DNA of 64,000 nt from an uncultured Eubacteriales bacterium (GCA_964403885.1 CAYOHY010000005.1:5949-69948); one strand, 5' to 3'. Positions 2-23,418 are shown, counted from the first letter of the stretch. Notes: generated by a model not told the origin, from the sequence alone. Numbers and translations are program-made.

Positions 2-511
2 ACCCACGTCGACGCTCCGGGCAACGTCGTGTCCGACAAGGTCATCAACGTTCCCGGTTGCCCCACCAACCCGTGGTGGTTCGTCCTGACGGTCGTGGCA
101 TGGCTGGTCGACTTCGTTCAGCCGTCGCGTCCGCTGGGCATCCTCACCGCCGGTGGAGCGATCAACACGGCCGCCGTCGACTCTCAGCGTCGACTCAAGG
201 CTGTCTACGGCGTGCCGCTTCACGGTCCCCAGTGCAAGCGCTTCGACTACTGGAACCAGGGCATCTACGCCACCAAGCCGGGCGAGCCCGGCTGCCTGCA
301 GCTCATCGGCTGTAAGGGCATGCAGACCATGACTCTGTGCGCGATGCACGGCTGGAACGGTCAGGCTCCCCACAACAGCACCGCACTCGATTACGGCGTG
401 AGCGGCGTGAATGGCTCCAAGGGCGGCAACTGTGTTGCCGGCGGTCACCCGTGCATGGCTTGCACGGAGACCGGCTACCCGGATGCCTTCCTGCCGTTCG
501 TGATCCGCTAG
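2..511 (+). CDS. [NiFe]-hydrogenase small subunit, C-terminal part (5' end outside window)
   Basis: Frame is open from base 2. Motifs: NVPGCP, HxxxCxR, GCL..IGCKG..T...C..HGWN, GNCVAGGHPCMACTE.GYPD. No C-terminal TM helix. Confidence 0.93.
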   Translation, partial: THVDAPGNVVSDKVINVPGCPTNPWWFVLTVVAWLVDFVQPSRPLGILTAGGAINTAAVDSQRRLKAVYGVPLHGPQCKRFDYWNQGIYATKPGEPGCLQLIGCKGMQTMTLCAMHGWNGQAPHNSTALDYGVSGVNGSKGGNCVAGGHPCMACTETGYPDAFLPFVIR

Positions 512-534: not shown

Positions 535-2595
535 ATGGCTCTTGTATCTAGGGAAGTCGACCCGATCTCCCGTATCGAAGGTCACTTGGGCGTGAAGCTC
601 ACGGTCGACGATACGACCAACACGGTCTCTGAGGCCAACGTTCACGGTAACCTGTGGCGCGGCTTTGAGAACTTCCTCATCGGTCGTGAGATCAACGACG
701 CAATCACCTTCACCCAGCGTATCTGTGGCGTGTGTCCTGTGCCCCACGGCAACGCCTCGACCTTCGCGGCCGACGCGGTGCTCGGGTACAACGACTGCTT
801 CCAGACCTGGGTTGCCGGCGGTAACCAGCTCTCAAGCACCACCGGTAACACGATTGTTCCGGTTCCGGCCGGCCAGGGTGTCCCCGAGAAGGCTGTGCAC
901 ATCCGCAACCTGGTGCTCTCTGCCGAGTTCCTGATGTCGCACATCACCCACTCGTACCACCTGGCTGCCCCGAGCTACGTTCAGGGCCCCAACATCCCGC
1001 CGTGGACGCCGTACTTTGACGACAGCTTCTACGCGGGTGCCCTCTTGTCGATCGGCCATGGCATCGATGCCAACGGCAAGCCCGGCAAGGGTGCCGACAA
1101 GTCCCCGGCTGGCGCCGACACCAACGGTGCCGTTCCGCGCGACGTCGAGGGCTTCTCGAACGACCTGTGGTCCGCGGTCATCAAGCAGTACGTCAAGGCG
1201 CTCCGCATCCGCCGCCTCACCTTCGAGGCTGGCGCGCTGTTCGCCGGTCGTATGCCTATGACTTCGTGCTTCGTGGCCGGCGGTGTGACCACCGACAAGT
1301 CGGAGGTCCTCACCACCAAGTGCACCAAGTACCGCACGATGATGGTCGAGATCGGCAACTTCATCATCCAGGAGTTCGTGCCGCTCTTCCTCGCCCTCGG
1401 CGTGCTGTATCCCGCATGGGACAACGTCAACAACCCGGGTGGCCAGGGCTACGGCGGCGGCGTGGGCAACTTCCTCGCATGGGGTGGTTTCCCGCAGACC
1501 GACGGTACGCTCGGCTCCGCTCGTGGCTACAAGATCGGTGTCGGCGGCGCTGTTCAGCCGATCACCAAGGCCGGCGTCCTCGCCAACCTGCGTGAGCACA
1601 TCAAGTACTCGCGCTATGAGGGTGCCTCGCAGGCCAACGACAACGCCGGCGTTCCCAACCCGGCCGGCGTCACCGACCCTGCTTCCGAGGACCGCACCAT
1701 CCCGAAGCGCAACGACGCCGCGAAGTACTCGTGGCTCAAGGCGCCTCGCTGGAACGGCAACCCCATGGAAGTCGGCCCGATGGCCCGCATGTTCGTCGCC
1801 GGTGTCTTCCAGAACAACGTGTACCTGCGCACCACGGTGCCGGGCTACACCGCGTACGCGAAGACCGTCGGTGCTGTCACCGGTCTGAACCCGGCTCTCG
1901 TCGCCGCCGACCTTGCGGTCGCGTGTGTGCGTGAGGGCGTCGCGACGCTCACCATCGTCGATGGTGTCGCGCCCGGTACTGACCTCGTGGCTGACGCCGC
2001 GTACCTCGTGGGCAAGACGAACGCGCAGATCGCTGCTGCGTACGCCAACCCCAACGCGGTCATCACCGGTACTATCGCCGGTCGCATCTACAACATGAAG
2101 GCCGGCCTCTCCACGATCGACCGCCTCCGTGCGCGTCCGATCGAGGCCCTGGTCCTCATCCAGAAGATGATCGGTGGCTTCACCCCGGGCACCAACGGCC
2201 TGGATCCGATCAGCTGGGGCGGCACCGGTTGGGTCGATCAGCTGGCTGCGGCCACTGGCGACACCTTCATATCCAAGGCTCCGTCCGTGACGGGCGCCTT
2301 CGGGTTCGGTGCCGTCGAGGCTCCGCGTGGCGCGCTCATGCACATGGCCGCCATCGACGGTGCAGGCAAGATCGTTCGTTACCAGTGCATCGTTCCCACC
2401 ACGTGGAACGCGGCTCCCAAGGACGCGAATGACGTTCGCGGTCCCATGGAGCAGGCGATGATCGGTATTCCGTACTCGCCCGCAACGACGGCCTTCAACG
2501 GTGGCGCCGGCACTTCGCTCGTCGCCGGTGGTGGCGTCGAGGCTCTGCGTGTCGCCCAGTCCTTCGATCCGTGCATCGCTTGCGCGGTCCACTAA
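535..2595 (+). CDS. [NiFe]-hydrogenase large subunit, group 1-type, 686 aa
   Basis: RIEGH, RGFE, L1 motif QRICGVCPVPH, EAPRGAL.H, VPTTWN, L2 motif SFDPCIACAVH followed directly by TAA. RBS ggagg upstream. Confidence 0.97.
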   Translation: MALVSREVDPISRIEGHLGVKLTVDDTTNTVSEANVHGNLWRGFENFLIGREINDAITFTQRICGVCPVPHGNASTFAADAVLGYNDCFQTWVAGGNQLSSTTGNTIVPVPAGQGVPEKAVHIRNLVLSAEFLMSHITHSYHLAAPSYVQGPNIPPWTPYFDDSFYAGALLSIGHGIDANGKPGKGADKSPAGADTNGAVPRDVEGFSNDLWSAVIKQYVKALRIRRLTFEAGALFAGRMPMTSCFVAGGVTTDKSEVLTTKCTKYRTMMVEIGNFIIQEFVPLFLALGVLYPAWDNVNNPGGQGYGGGVGNFLAWGGFPQTDGTLGSARGYKIGVGGAVQPITKAGVLANLREHIKYSRYEGASQANDNAGVPNPAGVTDPASEDRTIPKRNDAAKYSWLKAPRWNGNPMEVGPMARMFVAGVFQNNVYLRTTVPGYTAYAKTVGAVTGLNPALVAADLAVACVREGVATLTIVDGVAPGTDLVADAAYLVGKTNAQIAAAYANPNAVITGTIAGRIYNMKAGLSTIDRLRARPIEALVLIQKMIGGFTPGTNGLDPISWGGTGWVDQLAAATGDTFISKAPSVTGAFGFGAVEAPRGALMHMAAIDGAGKIVRYQCIVPTTWNAAPKDANDVRGPMEQAMIGIPYSPATTAFNGGAGTSLVAGGGVEALRVAQSFDPCIACAVH

Positions 2596-2615: not shown

Positions 2616-3866
2616 GTGAAGAGAGTATCCATCATCCTGGCCCTCACGGCCGTGATGCTGCTGGCCTTCGCCGGCTCCGCCTTCGCGAACTTCGGTCCGC
2701 ACGGCGGCTACGCCCTCGACACCGATGCGTGCGCCGGTTGCCACCGCGCACACACCTCGTTCTCTGAGGTGACGTGGGACAGCAACGGCACTCAGCGTAG
2801 CGCCCTTCTCGTGTCGTCGGCCAAGACGGCGACCGAGTTCTGCTACGCGTGCCACGGCAACGACGCCCCTGGTGCTTCCACCAACGTCGAGGCCGGTCTG
2901 TTCGATGCAGGCCCCTCCGGCGCCAACACTGTTCCGTTGGGCGGCGGTATCCTGTACGAGACCGAGTCCACCTTCAATGGTGGCCTCAACGGCGGTGCGT
3001 TCACCGGCGTGACGTCCATGCACGACATGGACAAGGGTGCGGTCACCGACCCGATGTGGGGCGCGGGCTCCTCGGCGCCGGCAGGCAAGAACCTGTCGTG
3101 CACGAGCTGCCACGACGTCCACGGTTCGTCCAACTACCGTCTCCTCAAGGACACGGTCGAGGGCGTGCCGGTCGGCGGCTACAACGCCAGCGACACCCCG
3201 ACCCCGATCGTCGTCTCGTACGAGACGAACTATCCGGTCGGCGGCTGGCTGAAGCACACCCCGGGTGCTGCTCAGATGGCGGCTTACCGTCCCAACTACA
3301 CCGAGCCCAAGTACAAGATCCTGCTCGGTGGCGGCGGCGCGGCCGGCCCCAACCGTTCGATGTCCACGTGGTGCTCCACCTGCCACGCGGCGTACAACGA
3401 CAAGACGAGCGCGTACGACTACGGTGCGTATGAGTCCAATGGCGCCATCAGCCGCGACGGCTTCGGCCAGCTCACGGTCACCGGTGCGACTCAGGCCGTT
3501 GGCTCGCGTGTCCGCCATCGTCACCCCGTCGACTCGACCGTGGTCTCCGCGAACACGGTGTCGGCCGGCTTTGGCACGAACGCCATCGTCGACTCGCTGC
3601 TTCCGCTCCAGCGCACCACCTCTACCGAGGGCAATGCCGCGGACAGCGTCCAGGACTACCTCGGCTGCCTGACCTGCCACCGTGCACACGGTTCGTCCGC
3701 GGTCATGACCGGCTGGGCCAACGCCCGCCTTGTCAATCGCGCGACGATCCCCACGTGGTCGGTCGAGCCCACGACGGCCCTCCCGGCTGGCGTGAACCCG
3801 AACGTGTCCTCGGCGATCCTGCGTGTGAACAACCGCGGCGTGTGCGAGCGTTGCCACAACAAGTAG
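2616..3866 (+). CDS. Exported hexaheme c-type cytochrome, OmcS-like architecture
   Basis: GTG start after agggagg. Signal peptide MKRVSIILALTAVMLLAFAGSAFA. Six CxxCH motifs (CAGCH, CYACH, CTSCH, CSTCH, CLTCH, CERCH) and six candidate distal His. Ends CERCHNK. Confidence 0.9.
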   Translation: MKRVSIILALTAVMLLAFAGSAFANFGPHGGYALDTDACAGCHRAHTSFSEVTWDSNGTQRSALLVSSAKTATEFCYACHGNDAPGASTNVEAGLFDAGPSGANTVPLGGGILYETESTFNGGLNGGAFTGVTSMHDMDKGAVTDPMWGAGSSAPAGKNLSCTSCHDVHGSSNYRLLKDTVEGVPVGGYNASDTPTPIVVSYETNYPVGGWLKHTPGAAQMAAYRPNYTEPKYKILLGGGGAAGPNRSMSTWCSTCHAAYNDKTSAYDYGAYESNGAISRDGFGQLTVTGATQAVGSRVRHRHPVDSTVVSANTVSAGFGTNAIVDSLLPLQRTTSTEGNAADSVQDYLGCLTCHRAHGSSAVMTGWANARLVNRATIPTWSVEPTTALPAGVNPNVSSAILRVNNRGVCERCHNK

Positions 3867-3897: not shown

Positions 3898-3936
3898 GAA
3901 GGGCCTCGGACGCAAGTCCGGGGCCCTTCTGCTTTC
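3898..3936 (+). terminator. Probable intrinsic terminator after the hydrogenase-cytochrome operon
   Basis: Hairpin gaagggcc-tcggac-gcaa-gtccg-gggcccttc followed by tgctttc. Confidence 0.75.
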
Positions 3937-4094
3937 TGTGCACATCACAGCTGCGAACGGGGACCAGATGAGAGCAGACGGATAGCAAATCGTTCAGCCC
4001 AACCCGTTGGCGGCCCGACAGACCTGCACAAACGCCCCTCGCAGCCCTATACTGTGCAGGTCAGGGGTTGTGCCCGCGCACGGGAATCCGGCCG

Positions 4095-5525
4095 ATGTCC
4101 CAGTGCCCCGAGGTAAGGAAGTGCATACGCGTGGAATCTCGCGAAGTCGCCGCTGGCGACATCCGTTCGCTGGGCCTCGTCGACGACCCCTTTCGGGTCG
4201 TGGATGACGGCTCCGGTAACGCCCCGGGCGTGAAGCTGGCCATCAATGCGGCCGCACTGCGCCTGTTCTGTGCGATCGAGGCCTCCGCGGCTGATCCGTC
4301 GCACCGCCCGATCGTCATCGAGAAGAACCGTGACATCCCGGCGTACTACCCGGTTGCCGCGTTGGCGAGGGTCTTCTCCGGCCTCTCGGACGAGACTCCG
4401 GTCGCTGGCATCCTGCAGTCATACATCCCGCTCGACATGATGCGTGTGGGCCGAGTCCGCTCGCTGCTCAACGTGGTGTCGGGCCGTGTCGCCGGCACCG
4501 ATCCCGCCGGCACCATCGGCATGTGGTCGCGTGAGGCGTTCGTCGAGCCTGACGAGTCGCTCGAGGAGTGGGCGGCGATCCGCGACACCATCACCGTCGC
4601 CGACATCCTCGACGAGATCGATCAGGACCCGCGCGCGTTTTGCGAGCGCATCTTTGGCGAGGTGGTCGAGTCCCGCTCCGGCGCCGAGAACATCGAACAG
4701 CTCATGCGCGTGTCCACGTCGCGTCAGGACCGCCTCGAGACCGACCCCGAAGAGGGTGTGGAGCTCGCCATCGCCGAGGATCCGGAGAGCGGGGATCTGC
4801 TCGACGACGCGTTCATCGTGCCGCTGGGTGAGCTCGACGCCGAGGCGCTGCCCGAGCCTGATCCGGCTACCGCTGTCGACGGGCTGATCGCCGACTACAT
4901 CATCGCCTTCACCAAAGAGCATCTCTCGCCGGTGGTCGCTCGCGGCATCGCAGCGTTTCGCGCCCAGGGCGTCAACTCGATGGCCGAGGAGCTCAAGATC
5001 ACCAAGGCCCCCAGCAAGACGGTGCACGCTCTCTACCGATTCGCCCGTCCGCGGTTCCGCTCCGGCGCCGTGATCTACGACCGCCTCGAGATGTGGGAGA
5101 ACGTGCCCACTGAGCTGCGGACCAAGATCGTGGGCACGATGACCGAGCTTCGCTGGGCACTGAAGGACGACGCATCGCTCGTGTTGATGCTCGTTCCCGG
5201 CACCTGCCCTGAGATCGAAGAGGGCTTCGCCTCGGCGATCCATGTGTCCTGGAGCTTCAAAGACGTCGAGCCCGTCTCCCAGCCTGACTCACCCTTCGAT
5301 CGTGCAATCGCCGCCGAGTGGCTCGCTTCCGCCTCGCTTTCGACCGAGGCGCCTGCGTGGGGCGATGCACTCTTCGATGCCATTCCCGAGGGTACGACGC
5401 TTGCGAGTGCAGCGACCGCCCTCTCGCGTGCGATCGAGCACGCCGTGGATGCTGGCTTGGCCGTACCTGATCCGGCCGTCGTGGTGGCCGCGCTTGATGC
5501 GGAGAAGGAGGCTGCCCCCGCCTGA
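4095..5525 (+). CDS. Hypothetical cytoplasmic protein, possibly a degenerate P-loop ATPase fold
   Basis: Long ORF with coding-like bias. N-terminal LGLVDDPF resembles the ExeA-type N-terminus, and GAVIYD resembles a Walker B motif. No Walker A. Stop overlaps the next ATG (TGATG). Confidence 0.7.
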   Translation: MSQCPEVRKCIRVESREVAAGDIRSLGLVDDPFRVVDDGSGNAPGVKLAINAAALRLFCAIEASAADPSHRPIVIEKNRDIPAYYPVAALARVFSGLSDETPVAGILQSYIPLDMMRVGRVRSLLNVVSGRVAGTDPAGTIGMWSREAFVEPDESLEEWAAIRDTITVADILDEIDQDPRAFCERIFGEVVESRSGAENIEQLMRVSTSRQDRLETDPEEGVELAIAEDPESGDLLDDAFIVPLGELDAEALPEPDPATAVDGLIADYIIAFTKEHLSPVVARGIAAFRAQGVNSMAEELKITKAPSKTVHALYRFARPRFRSGAVIYDRLEMWENVPTELRTKIVGTMTELRWALKDDASLVLMLVPGTCPEIEEGFASAIHVSWSFKDVEPVSQPDSPFDRAIAAEWLASASLSTEAPAWGDALFDAIPEGTTLASAATALSRAIEHAVDAGLAVPDPAVVVAALDAEKEAAPA

Positions 5526-8512
5526 TGCGTTCACGCCTCTCCAGCGCCTGGGTGTGTGCGGCGGCCCTTGTGGCCGTGGCCTTCTTCAGTGCTGTCTGGG
5601 TGGGGCCCGCATGGGCAGGGCCGGCGACTCCTGCTGCCGGGTTGGCGCCTCACGTTCCGATCACCTACGACACCGACGTGTGTGCCATGTGCCATCGGAC
5701 TCACTCGGCCCCCGGTGATGCGACGTGGCGCGACTCGCTGAACCAGACGCGCACGGCGCTTGCGGCGGGAAGCCCGGGTAGTGGCGATGCGGGACTGTGT
5801 TACACGTGCCACGGCGTCGAGACTCTCGGCTCGGGCACCGATATCCAGAGCTCCTTCGACGCCACCTCCGGCCACTCGCTCGAACCCAGCCCGTCGGCGT
5901 TTGGCGTATCGCCCAAGAACTGCAGCACCTGCCACGACTCACACGGCGCGGCGCGTGTCAGCACCGGCGTGCCGTACCCTGCGCTCCTGCGCGCGCGCAC
6001 CGCTTCCGGTGCGCTCGTGTACTCGGGCGATGTGGTGTGCACGGGGTGTCACGGCGTCAGGGCGGCGAGCAGCTTCCCCGGCCAAAGCGTCTGGGCCGCG
6101 TCGCCGCACTCGCGTATCGCCACTCCGGCCAGCGGGACGCGCATCGTGTGCAGCGCCTGTCACGACCCGCACGGCTCTCCCATCGCGCCGTCAATCCGCA
6201 CGGCGTTGGCGACCCCGTCGGCACCCGGCACGTACACCGTCGCCGCTAACGACCGTCGCCTGTGCTTCGGCTGCCACTCGGCGAAGCTTGGTGTCTGGAA
6301 CGGCTCCGCTTCCTATCCCGGCTCCTCGCACGCCTCGTCGACCGCGACCGTGACGATCTCGGGCGAGTGGGTCACCGGCACCGTCGTGCCGTTCCGGGCT
6401 GTGGGCGAGTGCCAGGTCTGCCACGCCTCGATGGGCAAGGGCGATGCGTCGGGAACGATCATCCCCACGCTTCTCAACGCCACGGGCCGCATCCTGTGCG
6501 ACACCTGCCATCGCACCGGCGGACCGGCCGTGTCGAACCTCGCGTCGCTCGCGTACTCGCCAACCACGCCGGGCAACGAGATCGTCGCCGCGTGGGGTGC
6601 CGTGACGTCCGATCGCTACGGTCGAGCCCAGGTGTTCGCCCGTGAGGCCACGTCGACCACCACTCCGGTGGGACCGCGTGACCTGTACCCCGTCACCAAG
6701 GTGGGGGACATGGCCGTGGGCGACATCGATGGCAACGGTGCCGCCGAGGCGATCGTCTCGGATCTGTCTGCGGCACGCGTGGCCATCCTCACGCAAAGCG
6801 ATCTGCGCTCCGTCGTGGCCACGCTGGTCACGCTCCCCGGAGCCGCGCCGGCCGAGAAGCTCACCGTTGGCGACGTGTTCGTCGACGGCTCCGGGCTGCC
6901 TGAGCTCGTGAGCGTGACCTCGACCGGAACGGTGCGGGTGTCGCGCTACGTCGCAGGATCGCTCGTCTCGGTTGACTCGGTTGTCGTGACCGGCACGCCC
7001 ATCGCGGTGGCCAGCGGCAACGTGACAGGGACCGCGGGGGCAGACATCGTCGTCACCACGGCGGCGAACACGATGTTCATCATCACGGATTCGGCCGGCA
7101 CGCTCGTGTCGCACGGTCCGTATGCGACACGAACCAACCCGGTGTCGGTCTCTGTGGGCAACGCCGATACGGACACGTCCACCGCCGAGATCGCCGTCGG
7201 CAACGCGGGCGAGGTCAACAACATCGTCTCTCTGTATCGCGGGACCGGCGTGCGCTACGACGATGGCGGAGGGCCCCTGCCGGCCGGCGCAAGCGTCAAC
7301 GCCGTGCTCATGGCCGACGTCCTTCCCGGGGTTACTCCGGGCGGCACGTCCGGCGCCGAGATCGCCGTCGCGTACGCCAACGCAAGCAACCGCACGGGCC
7401 TGCTGGTCGTTCCGCAGCCGCTGTCCACCAGCACCACCCAGCTCTACCCGGCTGCTGACCGCTCCAACGCGCGCGCGTTGGGCTTTGGTGACACCGATGG
7501 CGACGGCGACAAGGACATCGTGGTCGCGCTCTCGGGTGCGTTCACCCGGGACGCGAGTGCGACGCCGCCGTCGATCGCCATCTACACCCCGGTGTCGCCC
7601 GGCGGTGCGACGCTCAGCTTGCAGCACACCGCGTGGGGCGCCGGCGCCGAGATGGTGTCGTCACGTGCGGCGATCGCCGTGGCCGATATGGGCGCTGTGG
7701 TGCCGTCTCGCCACCCGGCAGGCGTGGTCGCGGGTGCCCACACTCCCACGGAGACGCCGCCCTACACTCGGCATGTGGAGTGCGTGGACTGTCACAACGT
7801 TCACGAGGCCAAGAACGACTCGGCCGACACCACGCTGATGGCAGGCGAGGAGCTGGGCGCGTGGGGCGTCTCGCGGGCGGCACTCTCGTCGACCACGCCG
7901 GTCCGCGCTCGCGCCACCGCCGAGTACGAGGTGTGCTACGCGTGCCATTCGTCGGCCGATCCCTCGGCGAACCGCAACGTCGCCTCTGAGGTCGTCACGT
8001 CGGGCATGTCGTATCACCCCATCGAGGGCCGCTCTCCCAACACGAGCGCTACCGGATCGACCCTGACCACCGCCGTGGTGGCGGGGGACCGCATCCGCTG
8101 TACGTCATGTCACGGCAACGCCGGGACCGGCGCTGCCGGTCCGCACCGTTCCCCCGCGTGGCCGCTGTTGTACAAGCGGTTCTCCGGGACGGTGGCGGTC
8201 GACTCGCAGATGGTGTGCTACGGCTGTCATGCTCCCGGCGTGTATCTGACCGGGGCCAACGACGGTGTGGGTGGAACGCGCAGCGGCTTCTACAACACCG
8301 CTGCAGGCGTGGGTAAGCCCGAGCAGCGCAAGCTTCACTCGTATCACGCCACCGCTGGCGTGGCATGTGCTGCATGTCACCTCAGTCACGGCGCACCCAC
8401 CCGCCGAGCGATGCTGCGCGGCGATGCGTTCACGTGGACCGAGCTGGCAGGCGGAGGACAGTGTGACGTGGCGTGCCATACGCCATCGACCACACATTCA
8501 TACACTCGATAG
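5525..8512 (+). CDS. Exported multiheme cytochrome c (13 CxxCH + 1 CxxxCH) with central FG-GAP/VCBS beta-propeller
   Basis: Signal peptide ending AWA. Eight heme motifs precede and six follow a block of about 7 repeats such as GDIDGNGAAEAIV and GDTDGDGDKDIVV. Confidence 0.9.
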   Translation: MRSRLSSAWVCAAALVAVAFFSAVWVGPAWAGPATPAAGLAPHVPITYDTDVCAMCHRTHSAPGDATWRDSLNQTRTALAAGSPGSGDAGLCYTCHGVETLGSGTDIQSSFDATSGHSLEPSPSAFGVSPKNCSTCHDSHGAARVSTGVPYPALLRARTASGALVYSGDVVCTGCHGVRAASSFPGQSVWAASPHSRIATPASGTRIVCSACHDPHGSPIAPSIRTALATPSAPGTYTVAANDRRLCFGCHSAKLGVWNGSASYPGSSHASSTATVTISGEWVTGTVVPFRAVGECQVCHASMGKGDASGTIIPTLLNATGRILCDTCHRTGGPAVSNLASLAYSPTTPGNEIVAAWGAVTSDRYGRAQVFAREATSTTTPVGPRDLYPVTKVGDMAVGDIDGNGAAEAIVSDLSAARVAILTQSDLRSVVATLVTLPGAAPAEKLTVGDVFVDGSGLPELVSVTSTGTVRVSRYVAGSLVSVDSVVVTGTPIAVASGNVTGTAGADIVVTTAANTMFIITDSAGTLVSHGPYATRTNPVSVSVGNADTDTSTAEIAVGNAGEVNNIVSLYRGTGVRYDDGGGPLPAGASVNAVLMADVLPGVTPGGTSGAEIAVAYANASNRTGLLVVPQPLSTSTTQLYPAADRSNARALGFGDTDGDGDKDIVVALSGAFTRDASATPPSIAIYTPVSPGGATLSLQHTAWGAGAEMVSSRAAIAVADMGAVVPSRHPAGVVAGAHTPTETPPYTRHVECVDCHNVHEAKNDSADTTLMAGEELGAWGVSRAALSSTTPVRARATAEYEVCYACHSSADPSANRNVASEVVTSGMSYHPIEGRSPNTSATGSTLTTAVVAGDRIRCTSCHGNAGTGAAGPHRSPAWPLLYKRFSGTVAVDSQMVCYGCHAPGVYLTGANDGVGGTRSGFYNTAAGVGKPEQRKLHSYHATAGVACAACHLSHGAPTRRAMLRGDAFTWTELAGGGQCDVACHTPSTTHSYTR

Positions 8513-8577
8513 ATACAGTGAGGCCCCGCCCGCGGAACCGGACATTCCGGGGGTCCTCATGAGGAGATGATGGTGCA

Positions 8578-9369
8578 GTGGGTAAGGAAGGCACGCGTTT
8601 CACTCGCAACCGCTTGGTGTGGGGTGCCGTAGCGGCGCTCGCCTTGGCGGGAGTGATCTTCGCCGCATCCGCACTGTCGAGCCCCTCGAAGTCTGAGCCC
8701 CCCGCGCCATCCAAGCTCTCCGCGCCCATCAGGGCCGAGCAGCTCGCGCGCTCGGCGCAGCAGGCGCTCTCCGAGAACCAGACGGCCACGGCGCTCGCCG
8801 CGGCGAACCAGGCACTCAAGCTCGATCCGCAGAACGCGACCGCACAACAGGTCGTTAACTCGGCCACGACGCCGGAGCCCAGCGAGCCCGCACCGTCGAA
8901 GCCTGCCACCTCCACCACCACCAACACCGCCGCCGACGCCAAGTACCTCAAGCCGGTCAGCGACCTGGGTTCCTTGCTGCCCGCCTCGATCAGCGGATGG
9001 ACGGCCGGGCAGATGGTCAAGGTCAAGCCTGACGCGCTCGTGACGTTCGAGCCCAAGTCATCTACGGCCGCGGCCGGCAAGATCGTGCGCGTGATCTTCA
9101 ACGTGCACGACCAGGGCAGCGCGTCCAAGGCGTCACAGTTCGTGACGCGCGTCGACAAGCGCGCGTACACCAAGAATCAGAGCACCGTGGATGTGGGTGC
9201 GGTCAAGGGAGCGTTCTTTGGCACCGACGGGCGCGGGGTCGCGGTCGTCGCATTCGCCAGAGGCCGCTACGCCTTCGAGCTGATCGTGGCGGTGAAGCCG
9301 GGCACCGCACCCGGCACCCTCAAGCAGCTCGCCACACAGGTCGCGGGCTCGTTCCCGGCAACGAAATAG
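8578..9369 (+). CDS. Membrane-anchored exported protein with TPR-like helical hairpin and P/T-rich linker
   Basis: N-terminal hydrophobic helix, segment ATALAAANQALKLDPQNATA, PEPSEPAPSKPATSTTT linker, alpha/beta C-terminal domain. Confidence 0.75.
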   Translation: MGKEGTRFTRNRLVWGAVAALALAGVIFAASALSSPSKSEPPAPSKLSAPIRAEQLARSAQQALSENQTATALAAANQALKLDPQNATAQQVVNSATTPEPSEPAPSKPATSTTTNTAADAKYLKPVSDLGSLLPASISGWTAGQMVKVKPDALVTFEPKSSTAAAGKIVRVIFNVHDQGSASKASQFVTRVDKRAYTKNQSTVDVGAVKGAFFGTDGRGVAVVAFARGRYAFELIVAVKPGTAPGTLKQLATQVAGSFPATK

Positions 9370-9380
9370 GTGACAGGGCG

Positions 9381-12300
9381 ATGATGTGCTCGCGCAAAGC
9401 TCTCCGACGACTGGTCCAGCTCTCTGTCGCGTGGCTGTTGGTGGTGCCCTCTGTGGCCCTCGCGTCTCCCTACACCCAGCCCGTCGAGATCTTCAGGGAG
9501 ACGTTCGAGACGACGTCGACCGCGTACACGGTGTCGGCCATCCAGTCGTCCTCGCCGGCCAACTGGGAACGCATCACCAAGCGGTTCAAGAACGGTACCC
9601 GCGGACTGTGGTGCGCGGGTACGCTCGCTTCGGCGGTCACGGCGATGAAGTACCCGGCCAAGACCAGCACGTGGGCGCAGTTCGACCTCCCTCAGTTTGC
9701 AGACTACTACCAGCCGAGGGTCGACTTCGCCTACACGATGCCCACGTTGGGGGCGAACGACGCAGAGTCGTTCGTGGTGGCGTGGAGGCAGTCGTCGTCC
9801 GGCACAAACAATATGTTCAACCGGACGCCGTGGCCCAAGACCGGCGCCAGTGCGTGGGTCACCGGCACGGCCGATCTGACCACCGGCACGCAGTCGCTGT
9901 CGCGCTCCTCGGGCAGAATCGCCTTCAAGTTCATCGACATCGACGACACCAACCTCAGCCCTCAGCAGGGCGAGGGTACGACCATCGACGACGTCATCTT
10001 CTCCGGCTGGAAGTACGGTTCCCCGCGCAATCTTGCGTCTTCGGTGGGTACCTCGGCGATCAGACTGGACTGGACGCGTCCGTGGCGTTCGACGGCACAG
10101 ACCTCCACGGAGGAGCGCCCGATCACCTACCGTGTGTGGCGCGCGCCCGGGGGCACCACCACGTGGACCGAGCTCACGGATCCCAATCGCCTGACCGCTG
10201 ATCCGGCGAGCATGACCCTCAGTACGCCGATCATCGGCGAGGGTGTCTCGTACCGCTACTCGGTGCAGGCATGGGACACGGGTGACGGGCAGGGCCTGGG
10301 CCAGGCCTCGTTGACCACCGCCACGGTTCCTGCCGTCCCGCCGGGTGTCACGCTGATCTCGCCTGCGCAGAACTTCATGCTCTCGACCGCGCCCATCCTC
10401 ATCAGCGGAGGCGCGTCGGACACCGGTACCGGCGTCAACAACGTGCAGGTGCGCGTCCGCCGAGCGGACGGCAAGTGCCTCACCACTTTGGGCACCTGGT
10501 CGACCTCGGATGTGTGGTTGCCCACCACGTCGAGCGACGGATACGCCACGTGGTCTCGCACCTGGACGCCGGATGCGGAGACGCTTGCACTGGGTCAGAT
10601 AGTGACCATCACCGCCAAGTCGTTCGACGGCGCCGGGATGTCGGCCACCACGGGCGGCGTCGCCTCGACGGTGCCCATGAGCGCGTCGGTGTCGCTTGCG
10701 GGCGGCGCCCCCTTCACCACGCAGCGCGTCGTGAGCGCGGCGATCTCGGCCGCCGGAGCCACCCCCACCAAGATGCGTTGGAGCGTCGATGGTGCGGCAC
10801 CAAGCGGGTGGGTCAGCTACGCGACCTCGCAATCGGTCGATCTTGGCGCCGGCGATGGCACCAAGACCGTCACGTTCGAGCTGTCCGCCGACGGCGGCAC
10901 CAGTGTCGCCGCCGTGGCTTCTGACTCCATCGTCGTTCACACGAGCGTGCCGCAGGTCGTGCTCGTGACCCCGGCCGACGGCTTCGCCCTGACGTCGGGC
11001 GCGGTCGCGATCGACGCGAGCGCCACCGACGCCGGAGGGTCGATCCAGTCGGTCCAGGTGCGCGTGCGACGCAGCAGCGGTACCTCGTGGGACGGCTCGA
11101 GCTGGGTGGCGGCCGACACGTGGCTTCCCGCTAGCTTCAACGCCGCCACCTCCACCTGGAACTGCGCGTGGACGCCTGACGCGACGGTGATCGCCGCAGG
11201 CGAGATCGTCTCGGTGGTCGCGCGTGCCGTCGATGGAGCCGGCCTGGTGGGTACCAGCCCTGCTGCATCCTCGGCCACGCCGCTCGCAGCGTCGTTGTCG
11301 CTCGACGGTGGCGCCGCGGTGAGCACCGACCTCGACGTGCTCGCCTCGATCGTCGCGACGGGCTCGCCCACGTCGATGCGGTGGCGCGTGAACGGCGGCT
11401 CCTATGGCGCCCCTCAGCCGTTCGCATCGAGTGTCTCGGTGGCCCTGCCTGCGGGCGACGGCACCAAGACCGTTGAGTTCGAGCTCACCGGACCCGGTGG
11501 TGTGGTGACCGCGTCCGACACGATCATGGTCCACACGAGCGTCCCCGCTGTGTCGGTGTCGACGCCTCCGGGCGGCTTTGCGCTCAAGTCGGGCACCACG
11601 CACATCACCGGCACCGCGACCGATGCCGGCGGCTCGATCTCGGCTGTGGACGTGCTCATCAGGCGCGCCGACGGCCTGTGCTGGAACGGCAGCGGGTGGG
11701 TTGTGACTGAGACGTGGCTGGCGGCCTCGACCGCCAACGGCTACGCGGCGTGGTCCTACGACTGGACGCCGGCAGCTGGCGATATCGCCGCCGGCAAGAT
11801 CGTCACGGTCAGCGCGCGTGCGTTCGACGCATACGGCCTCTCAAGCACGACGACCGGTGTCTCCTCGGCGGTGCCGGTCTCGGCCTCGATCGCACTTGCG
11901 GGCGGCGCGCCCTTCTCGGGTTCTGCGACGATCCCTGTGGCGATCTCGGCGGTGGGGGCCACGCACATGCGGCACAGTGCCGATGGCGGCCCCATGTCGT
12001 CGTGGGTGGCCTTCAGCAGCGCCTCGACCGTCACCGTGACTCCGGCCGATGGCGTCAAGACCGTGACCTTCGAGTTCTCCTCGGATGGCGGCACGACCGT
12101 TGCGGCTACCGCCTCCGATGACATCGTGGTCGACGGGTCCATCCCGGTGGTCGCGATCACGGCGCCGCAAGCGCAGTTCCTCACCACGGCGACGCCCGTG
12201 ATCCAGGGAACGGCCACCGATACCGTCTCCGGCGTGAGCGGCGTGAAGGTGCGGATCAGCAGCAATGGCGAGTACTTCAACGGCATCGCGTGGCAGCCTG

Positions 12301-13079
12301 AGGCGTTCGACCTCACAGCCACCTCTGACGACGGCTTTGCCACGTGGCGTGTGCTGACCGTTCCGTCGGGCCCGGCGCTTCCGTGGCTGCCGATGACGGT
12401 TCAGGCCACGGCGGTTGACGCCGTGGGCAACTCGGCGGTATCGGGCTCCGTGGTCTCTAACGACCCGCTGGATCCGGCGGCGCTCAGTGTCGCCGTGTCT
12501 CGGACCACAGTGCTGTACGCGGGGAGCGCCAGCGTCACCGGTACCCTGACCGTGCTGTCAGGCGCCTCCGCAGTGGGTCGCGCGGTGGACCTGCAGTACC
12601 TCTCCGGCACCACGTGGACGCGCCTCGCGAGCGCTACGACCACGGCCTCGGGTCGCGTGACCTTCACCGTGAAGCCGGCGTCCAAGACGTCGTATCGGCT
12701 CGTGTGCGTCGCCCCCGGGCTCCAGCAGGTCGCGAGCGGCATCGTCGCGGTCACGCCGGGTGTCTCGGTGACGGTGCCCACCAAGCCTTCCGTGGCCTAC
12801 CGCAACCGGGCGTTCACATCAGTGGTCACGCTCAAGCCGCGACACACCGTGGGCACCTATCCCGTGAACATCCAGTGCTACCGACTGGAGAGCGGCAAGT
12901 GGGTGCTGCGAAAGACGGTCAAGGCCAAGGCGACCTACAGCTCGACCACCTACACCCGGTGCAGCGGCGCCGTGGCGCTGCCCTATACCGGTACGTGGAA
13001 GGTCCGCGCCGTCGCGGTGGCCGATTCCGCACATGCGGCGACAACCGGCACGTTCAGCGCGAACTTCTCGGTGAGGTAG
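9381..13079 (+). CDS. Large secreted surface protein with FN3 and tandem Ig-like (Big) repeats
   Basis: Signal peptide, FN3-like segment (PRNL..., LDW, YRVWR, YRYSVQAWD) and repeated ~200-aa beta-rich units. Confidence 0.85.
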   Translation: MMCSRKALRRLVQLSVAWLLVVPSVALASPYTQPVEIFRETFETTSTAYTVSAIQSSSPANWERITKRFKNGTRGLWCAGTLASAVTAMKYPAKTSTWAQFDLPQFADYYQPRVDFAYTMPTLGANDAESFVVAWRQSSSGTNNMFNRTPWPKTGASAWVTGTADLTTGTQSLSRSSGRIAFKFIDIDDTNLSPQQGEGTTIDDVIFSGWKYGSPRNLASSVGTSAIRLDWTRPWRSTAQTSTEERPITYRVWRAPGGTTTWTELTDPNRLTADPASMTLSTPIIGEGVSYRYSVQAWDTGDGQGLGQASLTTATVPAVPPGVTLISPAQNFMLSTAPILISGGASDTGTGVNNVQVRVRRADGKCLTTLGTWSTSDVWLPTTSSDGYATWSRTWTPDAETLALGQIVTITAKSFDGAGMSATTGGVASTVPMSASVSLAGGAPFTTQRVVSAAISAAGATPTKMRWSVDGAAPSGWVSYATSQSVDLGAGDGTKTVTFELSADGGTSVAAVASDSIVVHTSVPQVVLVTPADGFALTSGAVAIDASATDAGGSIQSVQVRVRRSSGTSWDGSSWVAADTWLPASFNAATSTWNCAWTPDATVIAAGEIVSVVARAVDGAGLVGTSPAASSATPLAASLSLDGGAAVSTDLDVLASIVATGSPTSMRWRVNGGSYGAPQPFASSVSVALPAGDGTKTVEFELTGPGGVVTASDTIMVHTSVPAVSVSTPPGGFALKSGTTHITGTATDAGGSISAVDVLIRRADGLCWNGSGWVVTETWLAASTANGYAAWSYDWTPAAGDIAAGKIVTVSARAFDAYGLSSTTTGVSSAVPVSASIALAGGAPFSGSATIPVAISAVGATHMRHSADGGPMSSWVAFSSASTVTVTPADGVKTVTFEFSSDGGTTVAATASDDIVVDGSIPVVAITAPQAQFLTTATPVIQGTATDTVSGVSGVKVRISSNGEYFNGIAWQPEAFDLTATSDDGFATWRVLTVPSGPALPWLPMTVQATAVDAVGNSAVSGSVVSNDPLDPAALSVAVSRTTVLYAGSASVTGTLTVLSGASAVGRAVDLQYLSGTTWTRLASATTTASGRVTFTVKPASKTSYRLVCVAPGLQQVASGIVAVTPGVSVTVPTKPSVAYRNRAFTSVVTLKPRHTVGTYPVNIQCYRLESGKWVLRKTVKAKATYSSTTYTRCSGAVALPYTGTWKVRAVAVADSAHAATTGTFSANFSVR
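10340..12470 (+). repeat. Intragenic tandem repeat, about 3.5 units of ~600 nt
   Basis: Recurrent motifs: ASD.GG.I..V.V..RR.DG..W.G..W, GYA.WS..WTPD, AS..LAGGAPF, GDG.KTV.FE. Unit starts near 10340, 10945, 11540 and 12140. Boundaries are approximate. Confidence 0.75.
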
Positions 13080-13108: not shown

Positions 13109-14203
13109 CTACGGCACGATGTAGACCTGCGTGCCGATCTCGACGCGGTCGTAGAGGTCCTCGATGTCGTGCCGCACCATGCGCATGCAGCCGTGGCTCG
13201 CGGCCGAGCCGATCGACCCGATGTTGTTGGTGCCGTGGAAGCGGATACCCGACGCGCTCAGGTTCAGCGCGCGTGTGCCCAGGGGGTTGTCGGGTCCGGG
13301 CGGGATGAACGGCGGCATCGTCTTGGCCCACTCGCTGCCGGGGTTGACCCACGTGGGCCGATACCGCTTCGCCACGATCTCGAAGTGGCCCTTGGGTGTG
13401 GGGTGGGCCGGGGTGCCGATCGCGCACGCGTAGGTCTTCTCGATGACGGCGCCCTTGAACAGGCGGATGCGGCGCTCGGAGAGATCCACCACGATGGTCT
13501 TGCCAAAGCTCTTCGCGGTCACCTTGGCGGGAACCACTGCCACCGGTGCCTCAAGGGTCTTCTCGGAGGCAGCGAGAGCGCCGTCACCGCTGAACGCTTC
13601 CGTGATGAGCGCGACGGTCTCGGTCGCATCGGTCCTGCGGCCCGTTGATTCGGGCGTGATCTTCACTCGGTTCACGTCGACGGCGAGCGTCGCGTCGACG
13701 GCGCGGCGGTCGACCTGTGCAGCCTGTGATGCGACCCACTTCTTGACTGCGGCCTGGTCGACGGTGAAGGCCGGCTCGATCTCGGTAGTCAGGGGCGCAC
13801 CCGTCACGGCGTGGCCGACGCGATCCAGATAGGCGGCGGTGCGACGCGGCGCGTAGGCGGCGTCGATCATCCCGTTCACGTCGACGGCGACCGCACCCGC
13901 GGGGTCGAACGTCAGGTTCCTGCCGTCCATGGTCACGGTGACCGGACGCATCAACGGTGCGGACACCGCGGACTCGATCGCCGTGCGCGCCTCGGCCTCG
14001 GTCATGCCTGAGAGGTCGGTTCCAGCCACCGACACGCCCTGGGGAACGATGCCCCGCTCGGTGTAGTCGTAGACGGCGGCCCATGCCATCGAGGCCGAGA
14101 GCGCGAGCAGCATCGTCGCGAGCACGACGAGCATGATCCGTTGCCCGGTACCTGGAGCCTTCACAAAAGTGCCTCTCGCGTAATCAAACGGTGCGTCCGA
14201 CAT
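13109..14203 (-). CDS. L,D-transpeptidase (YkuD domain) with peptidoglycan-binding region
   Basis: IVVDLSERR, NPLGTRAL, IRFHGT...IGSAASHGCMRM. N-terminal TM helix. Confidence 0.92.
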   Translation of the reverse strand: MSDAPFDYARGTFVKAPGTGQRIMLVVLATMLLALSASMAWAAVYDYTERGIVPQGVSVAGTDLSGMTEAEARTAIESAVSAPLMRPVTVTMDGRNLTFDPAGAVAVDVNGMIDAAYAPRRTAAYLDRVGHAVTGAPLTTEIEPAFTVDQAAVKKWVASQAAQVDRRAVDATLAVDVNRVKITPESTGRRTDATETVALITEAFSGDGALAASEKTLEAPVAVVPAKVTAKSFGKTIVVDLSERRIRLFKGAVIEKTYACAIGTPAHPTPKGHFEIVAKRYRPTWVNPGSEWAKTMPPFIPPGPDNPLGTRALNLSASGIRFHGTNNIGSIGSAASHGCMRMVRHDIEDLYDRVEIGTQVYIVP

Positions 14204-14274: not shown

Positions 14275-15120
14275 GTGATCGAGGCGGAACCCGCGCACGC
14301 CAGCCGCGGCAGCATCGATAGGCTCATAGCGAAGATCAACGAGACGCGCGGTATCGACCTCTCTCAGTACCGTATCGCCTACGTCGAGCGGCGCCTCGCT
14401 GCGCGCATGCGCACGCTTGATGTGCGCACCTACCGCCAGTATGCCGACCTGCTCGAGTCGGACCCCGACGAATTCGCCAAGATGCTCGACACCCTCACGA
14501 TCAACGTCACCGACTTCTTCCGCGACGGTGTCATGTGGGAGTCCCTGCGCAACAACGTGCTTCCCTCGCTGGTCGAGGCGAAGCGCGCGGGACGCAACCG
14601 CACCATCCGCCTCTGGTCCGCAGGCTGTGCCACCGGCGAGGAGGCGTACTCGCTCGCGATGATGATGCTCGACCATCTGGGTCCCGAGGCATCGCGCTAT
14701 CTCATCTCCGTGTTAGCAACCGACCTTGACCCCATCGCGCTCAAGAAGGCCGAGGCGGGCGTCTATCACGTGGATCGCCTCAAGCGCATTTCGCCAAGCT
14801 ATCAGGTACGATTCACGCGAAGCGTGAGCGACACACAGTTCGAGATCAGACCCGAGGTCAAGCGGATGGTCAGGTTCAGGCGGATGAGCCTGTTCGACCC
14901 AACGCCGGTCAGGGTCATCGATCTCATCTTGTGCCGCAACGTGTTCATCTATTTCGATCGCGAACAGCAGGCCCGGGTGCTCGACAACTTCTGGGACTCC
15001 CTCAGCCGTGGCGGGTACCTCGTGCTCGGCCGGAGTGAGAAGTTGTCGCCGGACATGTCCGCCCGGCTCGAATCGGTTGACGGCAAGGAACGCATCTATC
15101 GCAAGCCGGCCCGCCCGTAG
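14275..15120 (+). CDS. cheR: Chemotaxis protein-glutamate methyltransferase
   Basis: [44 protein letters not shown]. Confidence 0.96.
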
Positions 15121-15161
15121 GGTCGACACCCGACCCGCTGGGTCGGCGAGGGGAGTCTCGT

Positions 15162-16484
15162 ATGACGCAGGAGCACCGCCACAGTGCAATGAGGCACGGT
15201 CTGTCGTCGACGTTCACGGTCCTCACGTGGATGACCATCGGACCGCCTGTGTTGCTCGGCCTCGTCGCCACGGCCTTCTTCGCCGAGCGGTGGCTGGATC
15301 TGTCCTGGGGTCAGATGGCGCCGGTGATCGGTTTCGGTGCTGTCGCGATGCTCGTGATGGCCCCGGTCGGAACGCTCGCGTGGCGCTGGCAGTTCAAGTC
15401 ACGCATCCTCAGGCCGCTTCGCGATCTGGGCGGCGTGATGATCGAGGCCGGCAAGGGTGACCTGACGCAGCGTGCGGACATCCATCGCGACGACGAGATC
15501 GGCATGCTCGCCAACGAGTGCAACATGCTCGTCGCATCCCTGGGCACCATCGCCAACCAGGTCCGCCGTTCCGCCGAGAGTGTCTCGGCCGCCGCATCGC
15601 AGCTGTCGGCGTCTTCGCAAGAGATCAACTCGTCCACCATCGAGATCTCGAGCTCGGTGCAGCAGATCGCGCACGGTGCCGAGCTGCAGTCGCGCAAGGT
15701 CGACGAGACCAGCCGCTCGATGGAGATCATCGCAGGCACGACCCGCGAGGTCGCCGTCAAGGCCCGCGACGCCGCGTTCACGAGCGACGAGGCCTTGAGT
15801 GTCGCTCGACACGGCGAGGAGGCGACCACACAGGCCATCGTCAAGATCGCCGAGGTGCAGCAGGCCATCGAGACCCTCGCCGAGTCGGTCGAGGTCCTCG
15901 GCCAGCGCAGCGAGAAGATCGGCGGCATCGTCGACGTCATCACCTCGATCGCGGACCAGACCAACCTGCTCTCACTCAACGCCGCCATCGAGGCGGCCCG
16001 TGCCGGCGAGTCCGGCCGCGGCTTCTCGGTGGTCGCCGAGGAGGTCCGCAAGCTCGCCGAAGGCTCCGGGCGTGCCGCCGAGCAGATCGGCGACCTCATC
16101 CGCGAGGTCCAGGCCGAGACCGCCAAGGCGCTGCGCTACATGGAGATCGGCACGCGCGAGGTCGAGGTGGGCAGCGAGGTCGTAGGCCGCACAAGCGATG
16201 CGCTGCGCCTCATCACCGACGCCGTCACGCGAACGTCCACGCTCGCCAGCGAGATCAACAAGTCAATGCAGGCGCAGTCGGAGCGCACCGCCGAGGTCGA
16301 CCGAGCGATGCATGAGATCGCTGCGGTGGTCGAGGAGAACGCCGCGTCCGCCGAGGAGACCGCCGCCGCGGCCGAGGAGCAGACCGCCTGCATGGAGGAG
16401 ATCACCGCATCCGCACAGGACCTGTCGGATATGGCAGAACGCCTGGATGATGCGGTCCACCGCTTCAAGACAGAAGAGGGATAG
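15162..16484 (+). CDS. Methyl-accepting chemotaxis protein (2 TM, HAMP, signalling domain)
   Basis: GDLT....DEIG HAMP motif and [37 protein letters not shown]. Confidence 0.96.
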
Positions 16485-16488
16485 GACG

Positions 16489-16977
16489 GTGGGCGAGTCC
16501 AAGGGCGCGAGCTACGTGGTGTTCCGCCTCGGCTCCGAGGAGTACGGGCTTCCCGTGGGCGCCGTCAACAGCATCATTCGGTACGAGGATGCGACGCCCG
16601 TCCCGCGGGCACCCGCTTCCGTGCTTGGCGTGATCAACCTTCGGGGGCGCGTCGTTCCGGTGATCGACCTGCTGTACCGATTCTCGGGCAAGCGTTTCGA
16701 GCCGCGCCCCATGTCGCGCATCGTGGTGGCCGAGGGGCGGACCGGCCCTGTGGGTGTCGTCGTGGACGCTGCCCACGAGGTCGCGCAGTTCTCCGAGGAG
16801 TCGTTTTGTGAGGTGCCCGAAGGGGTGCTGAGCCCGGAGACCGCCCGCGCCTTCACCGGTGTGGTCGAGCGCGACGGGTCTTTGGTCATACTGCTCGATC
16901 TCGATGAAGCAGTCCCGCGCGTCGAACTCGGCGCTTCGAACCCCGATGCATACGAGGAAGGGGAGACGGATGTCTAA
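16489..16977 (+). CDS. cheW: Chemotaxis adaptor
   Basis: YVVFRLGSEEYG, VPRAP..VLGVINLRGRVVPVIDL. Confidence 0.93.
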   Translation: MGESKGASYVVFRLGSEEYGLPVGAVNSIIRYEDATPVPRAPASVLGVINLRGRVVPVIDLLYRFSGKRFEPRPMSRIVVAEGRTGPVGVVVDAAHEVAQFSEESFCEVPEGVLSPETARAFTGVVERDGSLVILLDLDEAVPRVELGASNPDAYEEGETDV

Positions 16978-17341: not shown

Positions 17342-17353
17342 GGTTCTCACGTC

Positions 17354-20391: not shown

Positions 20392-20393
20392 CG

Positions 20394-21005: not shown

Positions 21006-21008
21006 CGC

Positions 21009-21515: not shown

Positions 21516-21533
21516 GAAGGAACACTGCCGCAC

Positions 21534-23398: not shown

Positions 23399-23418
23399 TG
23401 CCTGGGAGGACTCAATCG

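Follow-up and report, generated by a model that had tools for sequence, protein, structure and literature searches.

In a 64,000-nucleotide (nt) stretch of DNA from an uncultured Eubacteriales bacterium (hereafter the window; guanine-plus-cytosine (GC) content, 64-70%), four consecutive genes, which we call A to D, follow the genes of a [NiFe] hydrogenase and of a hexahaem cytochrome c. We put at about one in two the probability that A to D form a wall or surface electron-conduit module coupled to this hydrogenase-linked hexahaem, a member of the OmcS family, within a larger extracellular electron transfer (EET) locus of Coriobacteriia. The original prediction had taken the four genes for a machine that assembles and anchors a cytochrome nanowire. 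The relationship to OmcS and the co-occurrence of the genes with it held up; a dedicated role in filament assembly is unlikely, and a conduit module fits the data better. The features on which the argument turns are as follows.

2..511, plus strand: 3' end of HydS, the small subunit of the [NiFe] hydrogenase, cut by the window edge; homologous to HydS of loci L077, L078 and others
535..2595, plus strand: HydL, the large subunit of the [NiFe] hydrogenase (Pfam NiFeSe_Hases, E=2.7e-75)
2616..3866, plus strand: OmcS-family hexahaem cytochrome c (gene-caller start; 2571 is an alternative start)
3898..3929, plus strand: GC-rich hairpin with a 14-bp stem and a 4-nt loop, 32 nt after the hexahaem stop codon
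4025..4053, plus strand: promoter-like TGCACA-17-TATACT, upstream of gene A
4131..5525, plus strand: gene A, a 464-residue cytoplasmic acidic protein of a small orphan family, with an alpha/beta fold
5525..8512, plus strand: gene B, a secreted 14-haem cytochrome with a central FG-GAP beta-propeller
8578..9369, plus strand: gene C, a protein with an N-terminal transmembrane (TM) anchor, a TPR-like hairpin, a Pro/Ser/Thr-rich linker and a C-terminal globular domain
9381..13079, plus strand: gene D, a secreted 1232-residue Ig-repeat protein without a recognisable wall anchor

The four co-oriented open reading frames (ORFs) are spaced exactly as had been described. The stop codon of A overlaps the ATG of B in the sequence TGATG (5523-5527), and gaps of 65 nt and 11 nt separate B from C and C from D, respectively. 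We compared the genes with those of L084, a related strain whose A and B proteins are each 96% identical. At a synonymous divergence (dS) of about 0.3-0.4, the ratios of nonsynonymous to synonymous substitution (dN/dS) were 0.07 for A, 0.06 for B, 0.08 for C and 0.17 for D, indicating that all four are genuine genes under purifying selection, as opposed to ORFs that arose by chance in a sequence of 66% GC. The start of A, which had been placed at an ATG at 4095, was corrected to the GTG at 4131, as L084 carries a 1-nt insertion or deletion between these two codons, a Shine-Dalgarno-like GGTAAGGAAG is found 5' of 4131, and the gene callers and all homologues begin there.

The assignment of the upstream hexahaem to the OmcS family was confirmed by profile searches. 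A profile built from 50 homologues matched OmcS in the PDB (6EF8_A, E=4e-12), with profile positions 38-420 aligned to residues 8-406 of the 407 of OmcS and all six haem motifs colinear; the CHDPHG after haem 3, the CHRAH after haem 5 and the C-terminal CH-x-K were aligned as well. The relationship is nevertheless remote, since the single hexahaem sequence had no match among PDB sequences using phmmer. The protein has a signal peptide ending in AFA, directly before NFGPHGGY, six CxxCH motifs and a C-terminal ...CHNK, the last Lys of which is near-invariant in the family. One homologue carries the depositor name OmcS. The His located three residues after the first CxxCH is invariant in the 50 homologues, and its motif, CAGCHRAH, aligns with CEGCHTMH of OmcS, which contains His16. 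This motif is not diagnostic, as it is also present in B and in many non-polymerising cytochromes. In the OmcS filament, His16 is reported to ligate a haem of the neighbouring subunit (Wang et al. 2019).

The second line of evidence comes from B itself, which is a 14-haem propeller cytochrome as predicted. It has a signal peptide, 13 CxxCH motifs and one CxxxCH, with eight haems in the N-terminal part, six in the C-terminal part and the FG-GAP propeller between them, and all 14 haem sites are invariant in 18 homologues. The first ~140 residues of B, which hold haems 1-3 and include PH...D.D.C..CHR.H, share homology with the hexahaem N-terminus: an hhalign comparison of the hexahaem profile with the B profile gave a probability of 99.2% and E=9e-20 over B columns 12-140. 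Through this OmcS-type module, B could stack on or dock with the hexahaem. The matching region of OmcS reaches into the next filament subunit. We found more than 140 homologues of B, all of ~1000 residues, in metagenome-assembled genomes of Coriobacteriia and Actinomycetota. In the PDB, the B sequence alone had no match using phmmer, and its profile retrieved generic FG-GAP and cytochrome matches only.

The hexahaem gene adjoins those of an exported enzyme, and starts within ~20 nt of the hydL stop codon in the window. The best NCBIfam matches of HydL are large subunits of NiFe and NiFeSe hydrogenases, with scores below the cut-offs of these families. The full-length HydS orthologue of L077 begins with MAITRRQF..., which contains the twin-arginine translocation (Tat) motif RRQF, and has no TM helix. 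No cytochrome b gene was present in the gene lists of L077, L078 and L079. The enzyme thus combines the marks of a cytochrome-c-linked exported [NiFe] hydrogenase, namely, a Tat signal, the lack of a cytochrome b or anchor gene, and an adjacent gene for a multihaem cytochrome c. As both enzyme and hexahaem are anchor-less in a Gram-positive Coriobacteriia cell devoid of an outer membrane, something would have to hold them. Retention might be achieved by polymerisation or by anchored partners such as the TPR protein, the NHL propeller, C or the 20-haem cytochrome described below.

We collected 76 genomic loci around B homologues and searched them with iterated profiles of every gene of the cluster. 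The informative set consisted of the 42 loci whose sequence extends at least 8.5 kb upstream of B. The co-occurrence with an OmcS-like gene that the original prediction called for was found in 37 of these 42 Coriobacteriia and Actinomycetota loci, in which a hexahaem gene lies within 10 kb of the B homologue. C was present in 36 of them, a large Ig or wall-binding surface protein in 30 and an NHL propeller in 28. The loci fall into two types. Those that we call type H, which include the window, are ordered 20-haem cytochrome (not always present), TM-anchored TPR protein, TM-anchored NHL propeller, HydS, HydL, hexahaem and A, followed by either B-C-D or C-D-B and then by an L,D-transpeptidase. 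Type F loci, including that of Coriobacteriaceae sp. EMTCatB1, start with a molybdenum (Mo) oxidoreductase, an iron-sulfur (FeS) subunit with a C-terminal TM helix, the hexahaem and a polytopic membrane protein of 500-530 residues; a lipoprotein version of C, an NHL propeller, often a CWB2, BNR or Ig giant, B and the L,D-transpeptidase follow. The polytopic protein has 10-12 TM helices and no Pfam match (examples of such loci are L017, 493-12853, and L036, 684-12928). In every locus of both types, the hexahaem gene comes directly after HydS-HydL or after the Mo-oxidoreductase and its FeS subunit.

The neighbourhood comparison bore out the linkage of B and C with the hexahaem, but not that of A. 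A was present in 14 of 14 loci in which hydL is visible, and in two more whose flank ends upstream of the hexahaem, against none of 21 FeS-type loci; the polytopic membrane protein has the opposite distribution. A tracks the hydrogenase-type locus and not the hexahaem as such, and the A-C pair also occurs without a hexahaem (see below). In near-identical strains, the contigs break off within the hexahaem gene, and we therefore deduced the DNA to the left of the window from more distant relatives. In L077 (528-3144), L078 (54-4502) and L079 (1762-6104), the genes upstream of the hydrogenase code for the 20-haem cytochrome of ~530 residues, the TPR protein and the NHL propeller, and these three genes would be just off the left edge of the window here.

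The most distant members of the A family are on contigs of 43-51% GC. In L080, L081 and L083 (43-46% GC), a C-like gene, an A-like gene, a second C-like gene and a gene for a giant protein stand in this order (1827-10178 in L080), and no hexahaem or hydrogenase was found in the 9.7-14 kb visible around the A-C pair. The giant of L080 (46% GC) is a 1621-residue fusion of CBM, Ig and BNR domains with a B-like 15-haem cytochrome, which the B profile matched with E=6e-72; a D-like scaffold is thus physically linked to B in that lineage. The OmcS-like module of the fused protein is internal, at residue ~707, and not a free N-terminus. In L082, a heptahaem with an OmcS-like N-terminus is encoded directly upstream of an A-like gene, and a C-like gene is next. 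Together, the orders in L080 to L083 show that A and C travel together, and with cytochromes carrying the OmcS-type N-terminal module. A sortase gene lies near the L081 cluster.

We then considered the boundary between the hexahaem and the cassette. In all 20 loci checked, which represent both types, a strong hairpin comparable to that of the window was found 8-72 nt after the hexahaem stop codon; the predicted free energies (dG) are -34 to -50 kcal/mol in windows of 48-60 nt, and the stem sequences are unrelated. Perfect stems of at least 12 bp with short loops are rare elsewhere, a repeat scan having found three in 64 kb. In the hairpin of L084, a T-to-C change converts a G.U pair to G-C. 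The block at ~4011-4090, around the promoter-like site, differs from L084 by one substitution, whereas the spacer at 3935-4010 has diverged, and the block is probably a regulatory element. The hairpin itself is a candidate terminator, attenuator or mRNA-stabilising element, and probably keeps the hexahaem at a high ratio to the products of the genes that follow.

Expression data were available for one relative. In the EMTCatB1 transcriptomes, six consecutive genes were mapped to L017 by gene order and annotation only, and their mean abundances on the working, current-consuming cathode, in transcripts per million (TPM), were as follows.

1c0406, hexahaem: 2716 TPM
1c0405, membrane protein: 135 TPM
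1c0404, C: 162 TPM
1c0403, NHL propeller: 54 TPM
1c0402, giant surface protein: 585 TPM
1c0401, B: 297 TPM

In every sample, the hexahaem transcript was 4-21 times as abundant as that of the next gene, and for each of the six genes the cathode mean exceeded the open-circuit and inhibitor means. The authors of the EMTCatB1 study list 1c0406-1c0408 in the top 10% of transcripts at the cathode, together with genes for NiFe hydrogenases that lie in another part of the genome (PMC7943316). The hairpin, the promoter-like block and the excess of hexahaem transcript indicate that the cassette is at least partly a separate expression unit; it is expressed at lower levels and tends to change in the same direction as the hexahaem.

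A was described as a cytoplasmic protein of unknown family, and it indeed has no signal peptide, TM segment, or Pfam or NCBIfam match; a profile search of the PDB gave none either. It is acidic, with 80 Asp and Glu against 43 Lys and Arg. The family comprises 25 clusters among 5.8e9 sequences and 173 representatives in a full HMMER scan of 1.84e9. That scan of the 1.84e9 representatives revealed no link to a larger superfamily, and neither 25 family members nor the seven most distant relatives had a Pfam match. The AlphaFold2 (AF2) model of A has a mean predicted local distance difference test score (pLDDT) of 86.5. Nearly all top Foldseek matches of this model were AAA+ proteins (BrxC, TnsC, ORC and Mpa), and they were weak, with E of at least 0.16 and TM-scores of at most 0.25. 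The Walker A P-loop, GxxxxGK[ST], is absent from the 25-sequence alignment and from the distant members; the position after the first strand is occupied instead by VEKxxxIPxYY or WILKD. We had considered A as an ExeA-like ATPase from its N-terminal GLxxNPF, and this was rejected because the P-loop is missing. We likewise discarded the possibility that A has a divergent form in the 501-531-residue membrane protein of Mo/FeS-type loci, as BLASTP found no similarity and that protein is polytopic.

C proved to be a TM-anchored TPR-like protein, as had been proposed. An N-terminal TM helix, the only one of the protein, precedes a lone TPR-like hairpin, a linker of low complexity rich in Pro, Ser and Thr, and a C-terminal globular domain of unknown fold. 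Positions 65-112 of its family profile match consensus TPR proteins; the whole-sequence E values, down to 6e-15, reflect repeated matching of a single repeat-length stretch, and the Pfam TPR scores of the window protein are below the cut-off. The anchor differs between the locus types. The C of type H Coriobacteriia loci, which have A, is anchored by a TM helix and has a cytoplasmic tail, and that of type F loci, which have no A, is a lipoprotein with a lipobox. This correlation fits a contact between A and C.

For D, the proposed 1232-residue size and Ig repeats were found, together with a signal peptide, but no recognisable wall anchor: the protein contains no LPXTG motif, C-terminal TM helix, or SLH or CWB2 Pfam domain. 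It is composed of an N-terminal domain of ~190 residues, an FN3-like domain, the Ig-like repeats and two C-terminal beta-sandwiches. The N-terminal domain had no match among PDB sequences or in Pfam, and the FN3-like domain, which has no family match, was assigned by eye from the sequence. The repeat region consists of three copies of a pair of Ig-like domains (~110 and 90 residues) and a fourth copy of the first domain. Conservation among relatives is confined to the N-terminal ~300 residues, and giants containing CWB2 or BNR domains replace D in some of them (CWB2 in L017 and L078).

A model that accommodates these observations runs as follows. The locus would start off the window, where close relatives have the 20-haem cytochrome, the TM-anchored TPR protein and the TM-anchored NHL propeller, and would continue with the Tat-exported [NiFe] hydrogenase, devoid of a membrane anchor or cytochrome b partner. 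The hexahaem would serve as redox partner of the hydrogenase and close the first unit, being made in excess of the downstream genes by way of the hairpin. B would act as a secreted 14-haem carrier, whose OmcS-type module may stack on or dock with the hexahaem and whose FG-GAP propeller may be a binding platform. D, rich in Ig domains, could be a stalk or scaffold of B; one distant lineage has the two as a fusion. C would be a membrane-tethered protein with a long linker, and A, with its weak AAA+-like fold matches and no P-loop, a possible cytoplasmic partner that travels with C. In this way, A to D might connect the oxidation or evolution of H2 on the outer side of the membrane with acceptors or donors outside the cell, such as minerals, electrodes or partner cells.

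What we observed directly are homologies, synteny, selection on the genes, a conserved hairpin and, in one relative, expression; who contacts whom, the direction of electron flow, any polymerisation of the hexahaem and the roles of A and C are what we infer from them, and several further points weigh against the conduit model. A has no recognisable function, and the AAA+ likeness of its model is not significant at the values given above. D is poorly conserved and is swapped for other giant surface proteins in relatives. The AF2 model of the hexahaem, built with 50 homologues, has a mean pLDDT of 63.5, too poor for a comparison with OmcS, and Foldseek found no PDB match with E<1 for it. B homologues occur without a nearby hexahaem in L015, L058 and L063, and possibly in L022 and L064, where the flank may cut the locus. 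Conversely, OmcS-like genes occur without A, B, C or D in L070-L076. Among these, the Solirubrobacterales loci L071 and L074-L076 (~7.8-19.8 kb) have a TPR gene, an NHL gene, three tandem OmcS-like genes and a further TPR gene, with a 20-haem cytochrome a few kb downstream, which makes TPR and NHL proteins, and not A to D, the companions common to actinobacterial OmcS-like loci. As for expression, the two EMTCatB1 cathode replicates differ ~15-fold for the hexahaem, and the correspondence between EMTCatB1 genes and L017 is deduced from order and annotation.

These points bear differently on the other explanations of the cassette. If, as originally predicted, the hexahaem polymerised into an OmcS-type filament, A to D would be a monoderm machine that exports, nucleates or tethers it through the thick wall, with B as a cap or base subunit by virtue of its OmcS-like N-terminal module, and C and D as a tether and a wall-spanning scaffold. 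We regard this as unlikely. The homology with OmcS does extend over the full length and includes the residue aligned with His16, but polymerisation of the hexahaem is a conjecture; according to a recent preprint, wires are known for OmcS alone and for none of its paralogues, and nanowire calls from homology are error-prone. The large excess of hexahaem over its neighbours is what polymer subunits would need, yet abundant monomeric carriers such as cytochrome c3 would give the same pattern. Sharing of the OmcS-type module by B and the tight co-occurrence also speak for the filament; however, B looks like a 14-haem electron carrier and is no obvious assembly factor, and the module sits in the interior of the fused B-like protein. 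An anchor-less hexahaem and hydrogenase without an outer membrane would call for supramolecular retention, and companion genes have a precedent in Geobacter. Against this, the companions that actinobacterial OmcS-like loci have in common are the TPR and NHL genes off the window, A follows the hydrogenase-type locus, the A-C pair has no hexahaem in view in distant lineages, and the hairpin and promoter-like block split the hexahaem from A. It is equally doubtful that the locus encodes the first monoderm OmcS-type nanowire, in which a filament charged by the anchor-less hydrogenase (by a formate-dehydrogenase-like enzyme in the sister loci) would be capped or seated by B and assembled or tethered by an A/C/D apparatus unrelated to Geobacter Osc, perhaps with the help of the L,D-transpeptidase.

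The split at the hairpin could also mean that two units are merely adjacent. HydS-HydL and the hexahaem would then be a self-contained couple resembling hydrogenase and cytochrome c3, and A to D a separate, B-centred surface reductase or oxidase module fed by other carriers, for instance, the 24-haem NapC-type cytochrome encoded at 34681-36813. We find this unlikely too, though slightly less so. It would account for the conserved promoter-like block and the hairpin between the units, for their strongly different expression levels, for the module of A-like, C-like and B-like proteins that stands alone in L080, L081 and L083, and for B paralogues without a hexahaem, and the window does encode other large membrane cytochromes. 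However, the adjacency has been kept with two different upstream enzymes, in three gene orders and in divergent genomes (B identity of 34-53%), the B module is homologous to the N-terminus of the hexahaem, and the mean expression of both units shifts in the same direction in EMTCatB1. That A to D are ordinary wall or adhesion genes with no redox role, near a cytochrome by chance, is highly improbable. D has Ig-like domains only, A and C have no cofactor motifs, and an L,D-transpeptidase and peptidoglycan enzymes are encoded nearby, but the 14 conserved haem sites of B and a synteny with cytochromes that is kept across classes and in a gene fusion effectively refute this explanation. We thus favour a conduit module coupled to the hexahaem and the hydrogenase.

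Several other genes of the window deserve mention. The gene that converges with D is the following.

13109..14203, minus strand: YkuD-type L,D-transpeptidase with a PG_binding_4 domain (Pfam)

A YkuD L,D-transpeptidase gene directly follows the cluster in ~30 related loci of both types; its membership in the system is uncertain. Covalent attachment of a cluster protein to peptidoglycan by this enzyme is conceivable. The region at 14275-23030 holds a complete Che operon (CheR, MCP, CheW, CheY, CheB, CheA, CheC and CheD) that ends in a GAF-GGDEF diguanylate cyclase, and in many related loci CheR and MCP genes come after the cytochrome cluster, suggesting a linked system for sensing or for the control of biofilms. 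The cytochrome at 34681-36813 is a membrane-anchored protein of 710 residues with a NapC/NirT-type N-terminus and 24 haem motifs, followed by a DUF2085 membrane protein (36972-37793). It is a candidate for linking the quinone pool to the extracellular cytochromes. Genes for a PG_binding_1 protein, an NlpC/P60 hydrolase, a T2SSE-family (PilB/PilT-like) ATPase and a class A penicillin-binding protein are at 23269-26633 and 28608-30713, and the gene for a redox-sensing repressor of the Rex type (Put_DNA-bind_N and CoA_binding) is at 43046-43762. Further downstream, housekeeping genes for ClpC, RadA, DisA, tRNA synthetases and EF-Tu mark the core chromosome.

Nanowires made of cytochromes, and the genes that assemble them, have been described in diderm bacteria, Geobacter and its relatives, and cytochrome filaments in archaea. 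How electrons pass through the thick Gram-positive wall is much less clear, and the locus described here is a concrete and widely conserved gene set with which to address it. It directly connects a cytochrome of the OmcS family with an exported hydrogenase or Mo-enzyme, and offers distinct parts to work on, namely, the OmcS-like module of B, the A-C pair and the conserved hairpin. Its carriers, the Coriobacteriia lineages OPB41/Anaerosomatales and their relatives, are common in subsurface, peat and bioelectrochemical communities, and one of them, EMTCatB1, is dominant on an electromethanogenic cathode, where it expresses the sister locus. If true, the coupling would explain how cathodic or mineral electrons could be turned into H2 or formate, or the reverse.

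Comparison with known systems places the locus between several of them. In Gram-positive metal reducers, with OcwA of Thermincola potens and its relatives (cited in PMC7943316 and PMC9686372), electrons likewise cross a thick wall by way of haem proteins; the architecture here differs by its propeller insertion and OmcS-type module. Searches of PDB sequences with the B and hexahaem profiles revealed no sequence relationship to Gram-positive wall cytochromes of the OcwA type. The genome of EMTCatB1 (PMC7943316), to which L017 belongs, has a Mo/FeS sister locus with orthologues of the hexahaem, C and B, and it differs in having a polytopic membrane protein in the place of A, a lipoprotein C, an NHL propeller and a CWB2 giant in the place of D. 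The papers on OPB41 and EMTCatB1 (PMC7943316) list multihaem clusters without recognising this module, and the latter does not make the link with OmcS either. No paper linking OmcS with Coriobacteriia was present in the literature that we searched, an incomplete collection.

The closest parallel for a hexahaem with companion genes is Geobacter sulfurreducens OmcS with its osc (OmcS companion) cluster, GSU2493-2504. That OmcS biogenesis depends on neighbouring genes, as the original prediction held, is in the literature (Shen et al. 2025, via PMC13194489 and bioRxiv 10.1101/2025.11.06.686851). Both clusters code for an OmcS-family hexahaem of ~400 residues with six colinear haem motifs and for large multihaem cytochromes. 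TPR and beta-propeller genes are near the hexahaem in both, the omcS region of Geobacter being annotated with TPR-domain and YVTN beta-propeller proteins, and the three tandem OmcS-like genes of the Solirubrobacterales recall omcS, omcT and GSU2501. In contrast, the bacterium here is a monoderm, in which no porin-type secretion step is expected, and its hexahaem gene is within a hydrogenase operon (or, in sister loci, a Mo-enzyme operon). No named Geobacter counterpart exists for A, C or D, and the resemblance is at the level of domains (TPR, NHL propeller and large multihaem cytochromes).

With respect to the enzyme, the locus resembles the cytochrome-c-linked exported enzymes of Desulfovibrio, the periplasmic hydrogenases HynAB and HysAB with type I cytochrome c3 and the formate dehydrogenase FdhABC3. 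As there, the [NiFe] enzyme is Tat-exported and soluble, has no cytochrome b subunit and is encoded next to a multihaem cytochrome c; in the sister loci, a Mo-enzyme with an FeS subunit is paired with this same cytochrome family. Unlike in Desulfovibrio, an OmcS-family hexahaem takes the place of the tetrahaem c3, the cell has no outer membrane, and the enzyme and its cytochrome are followed by the surface module A to D.

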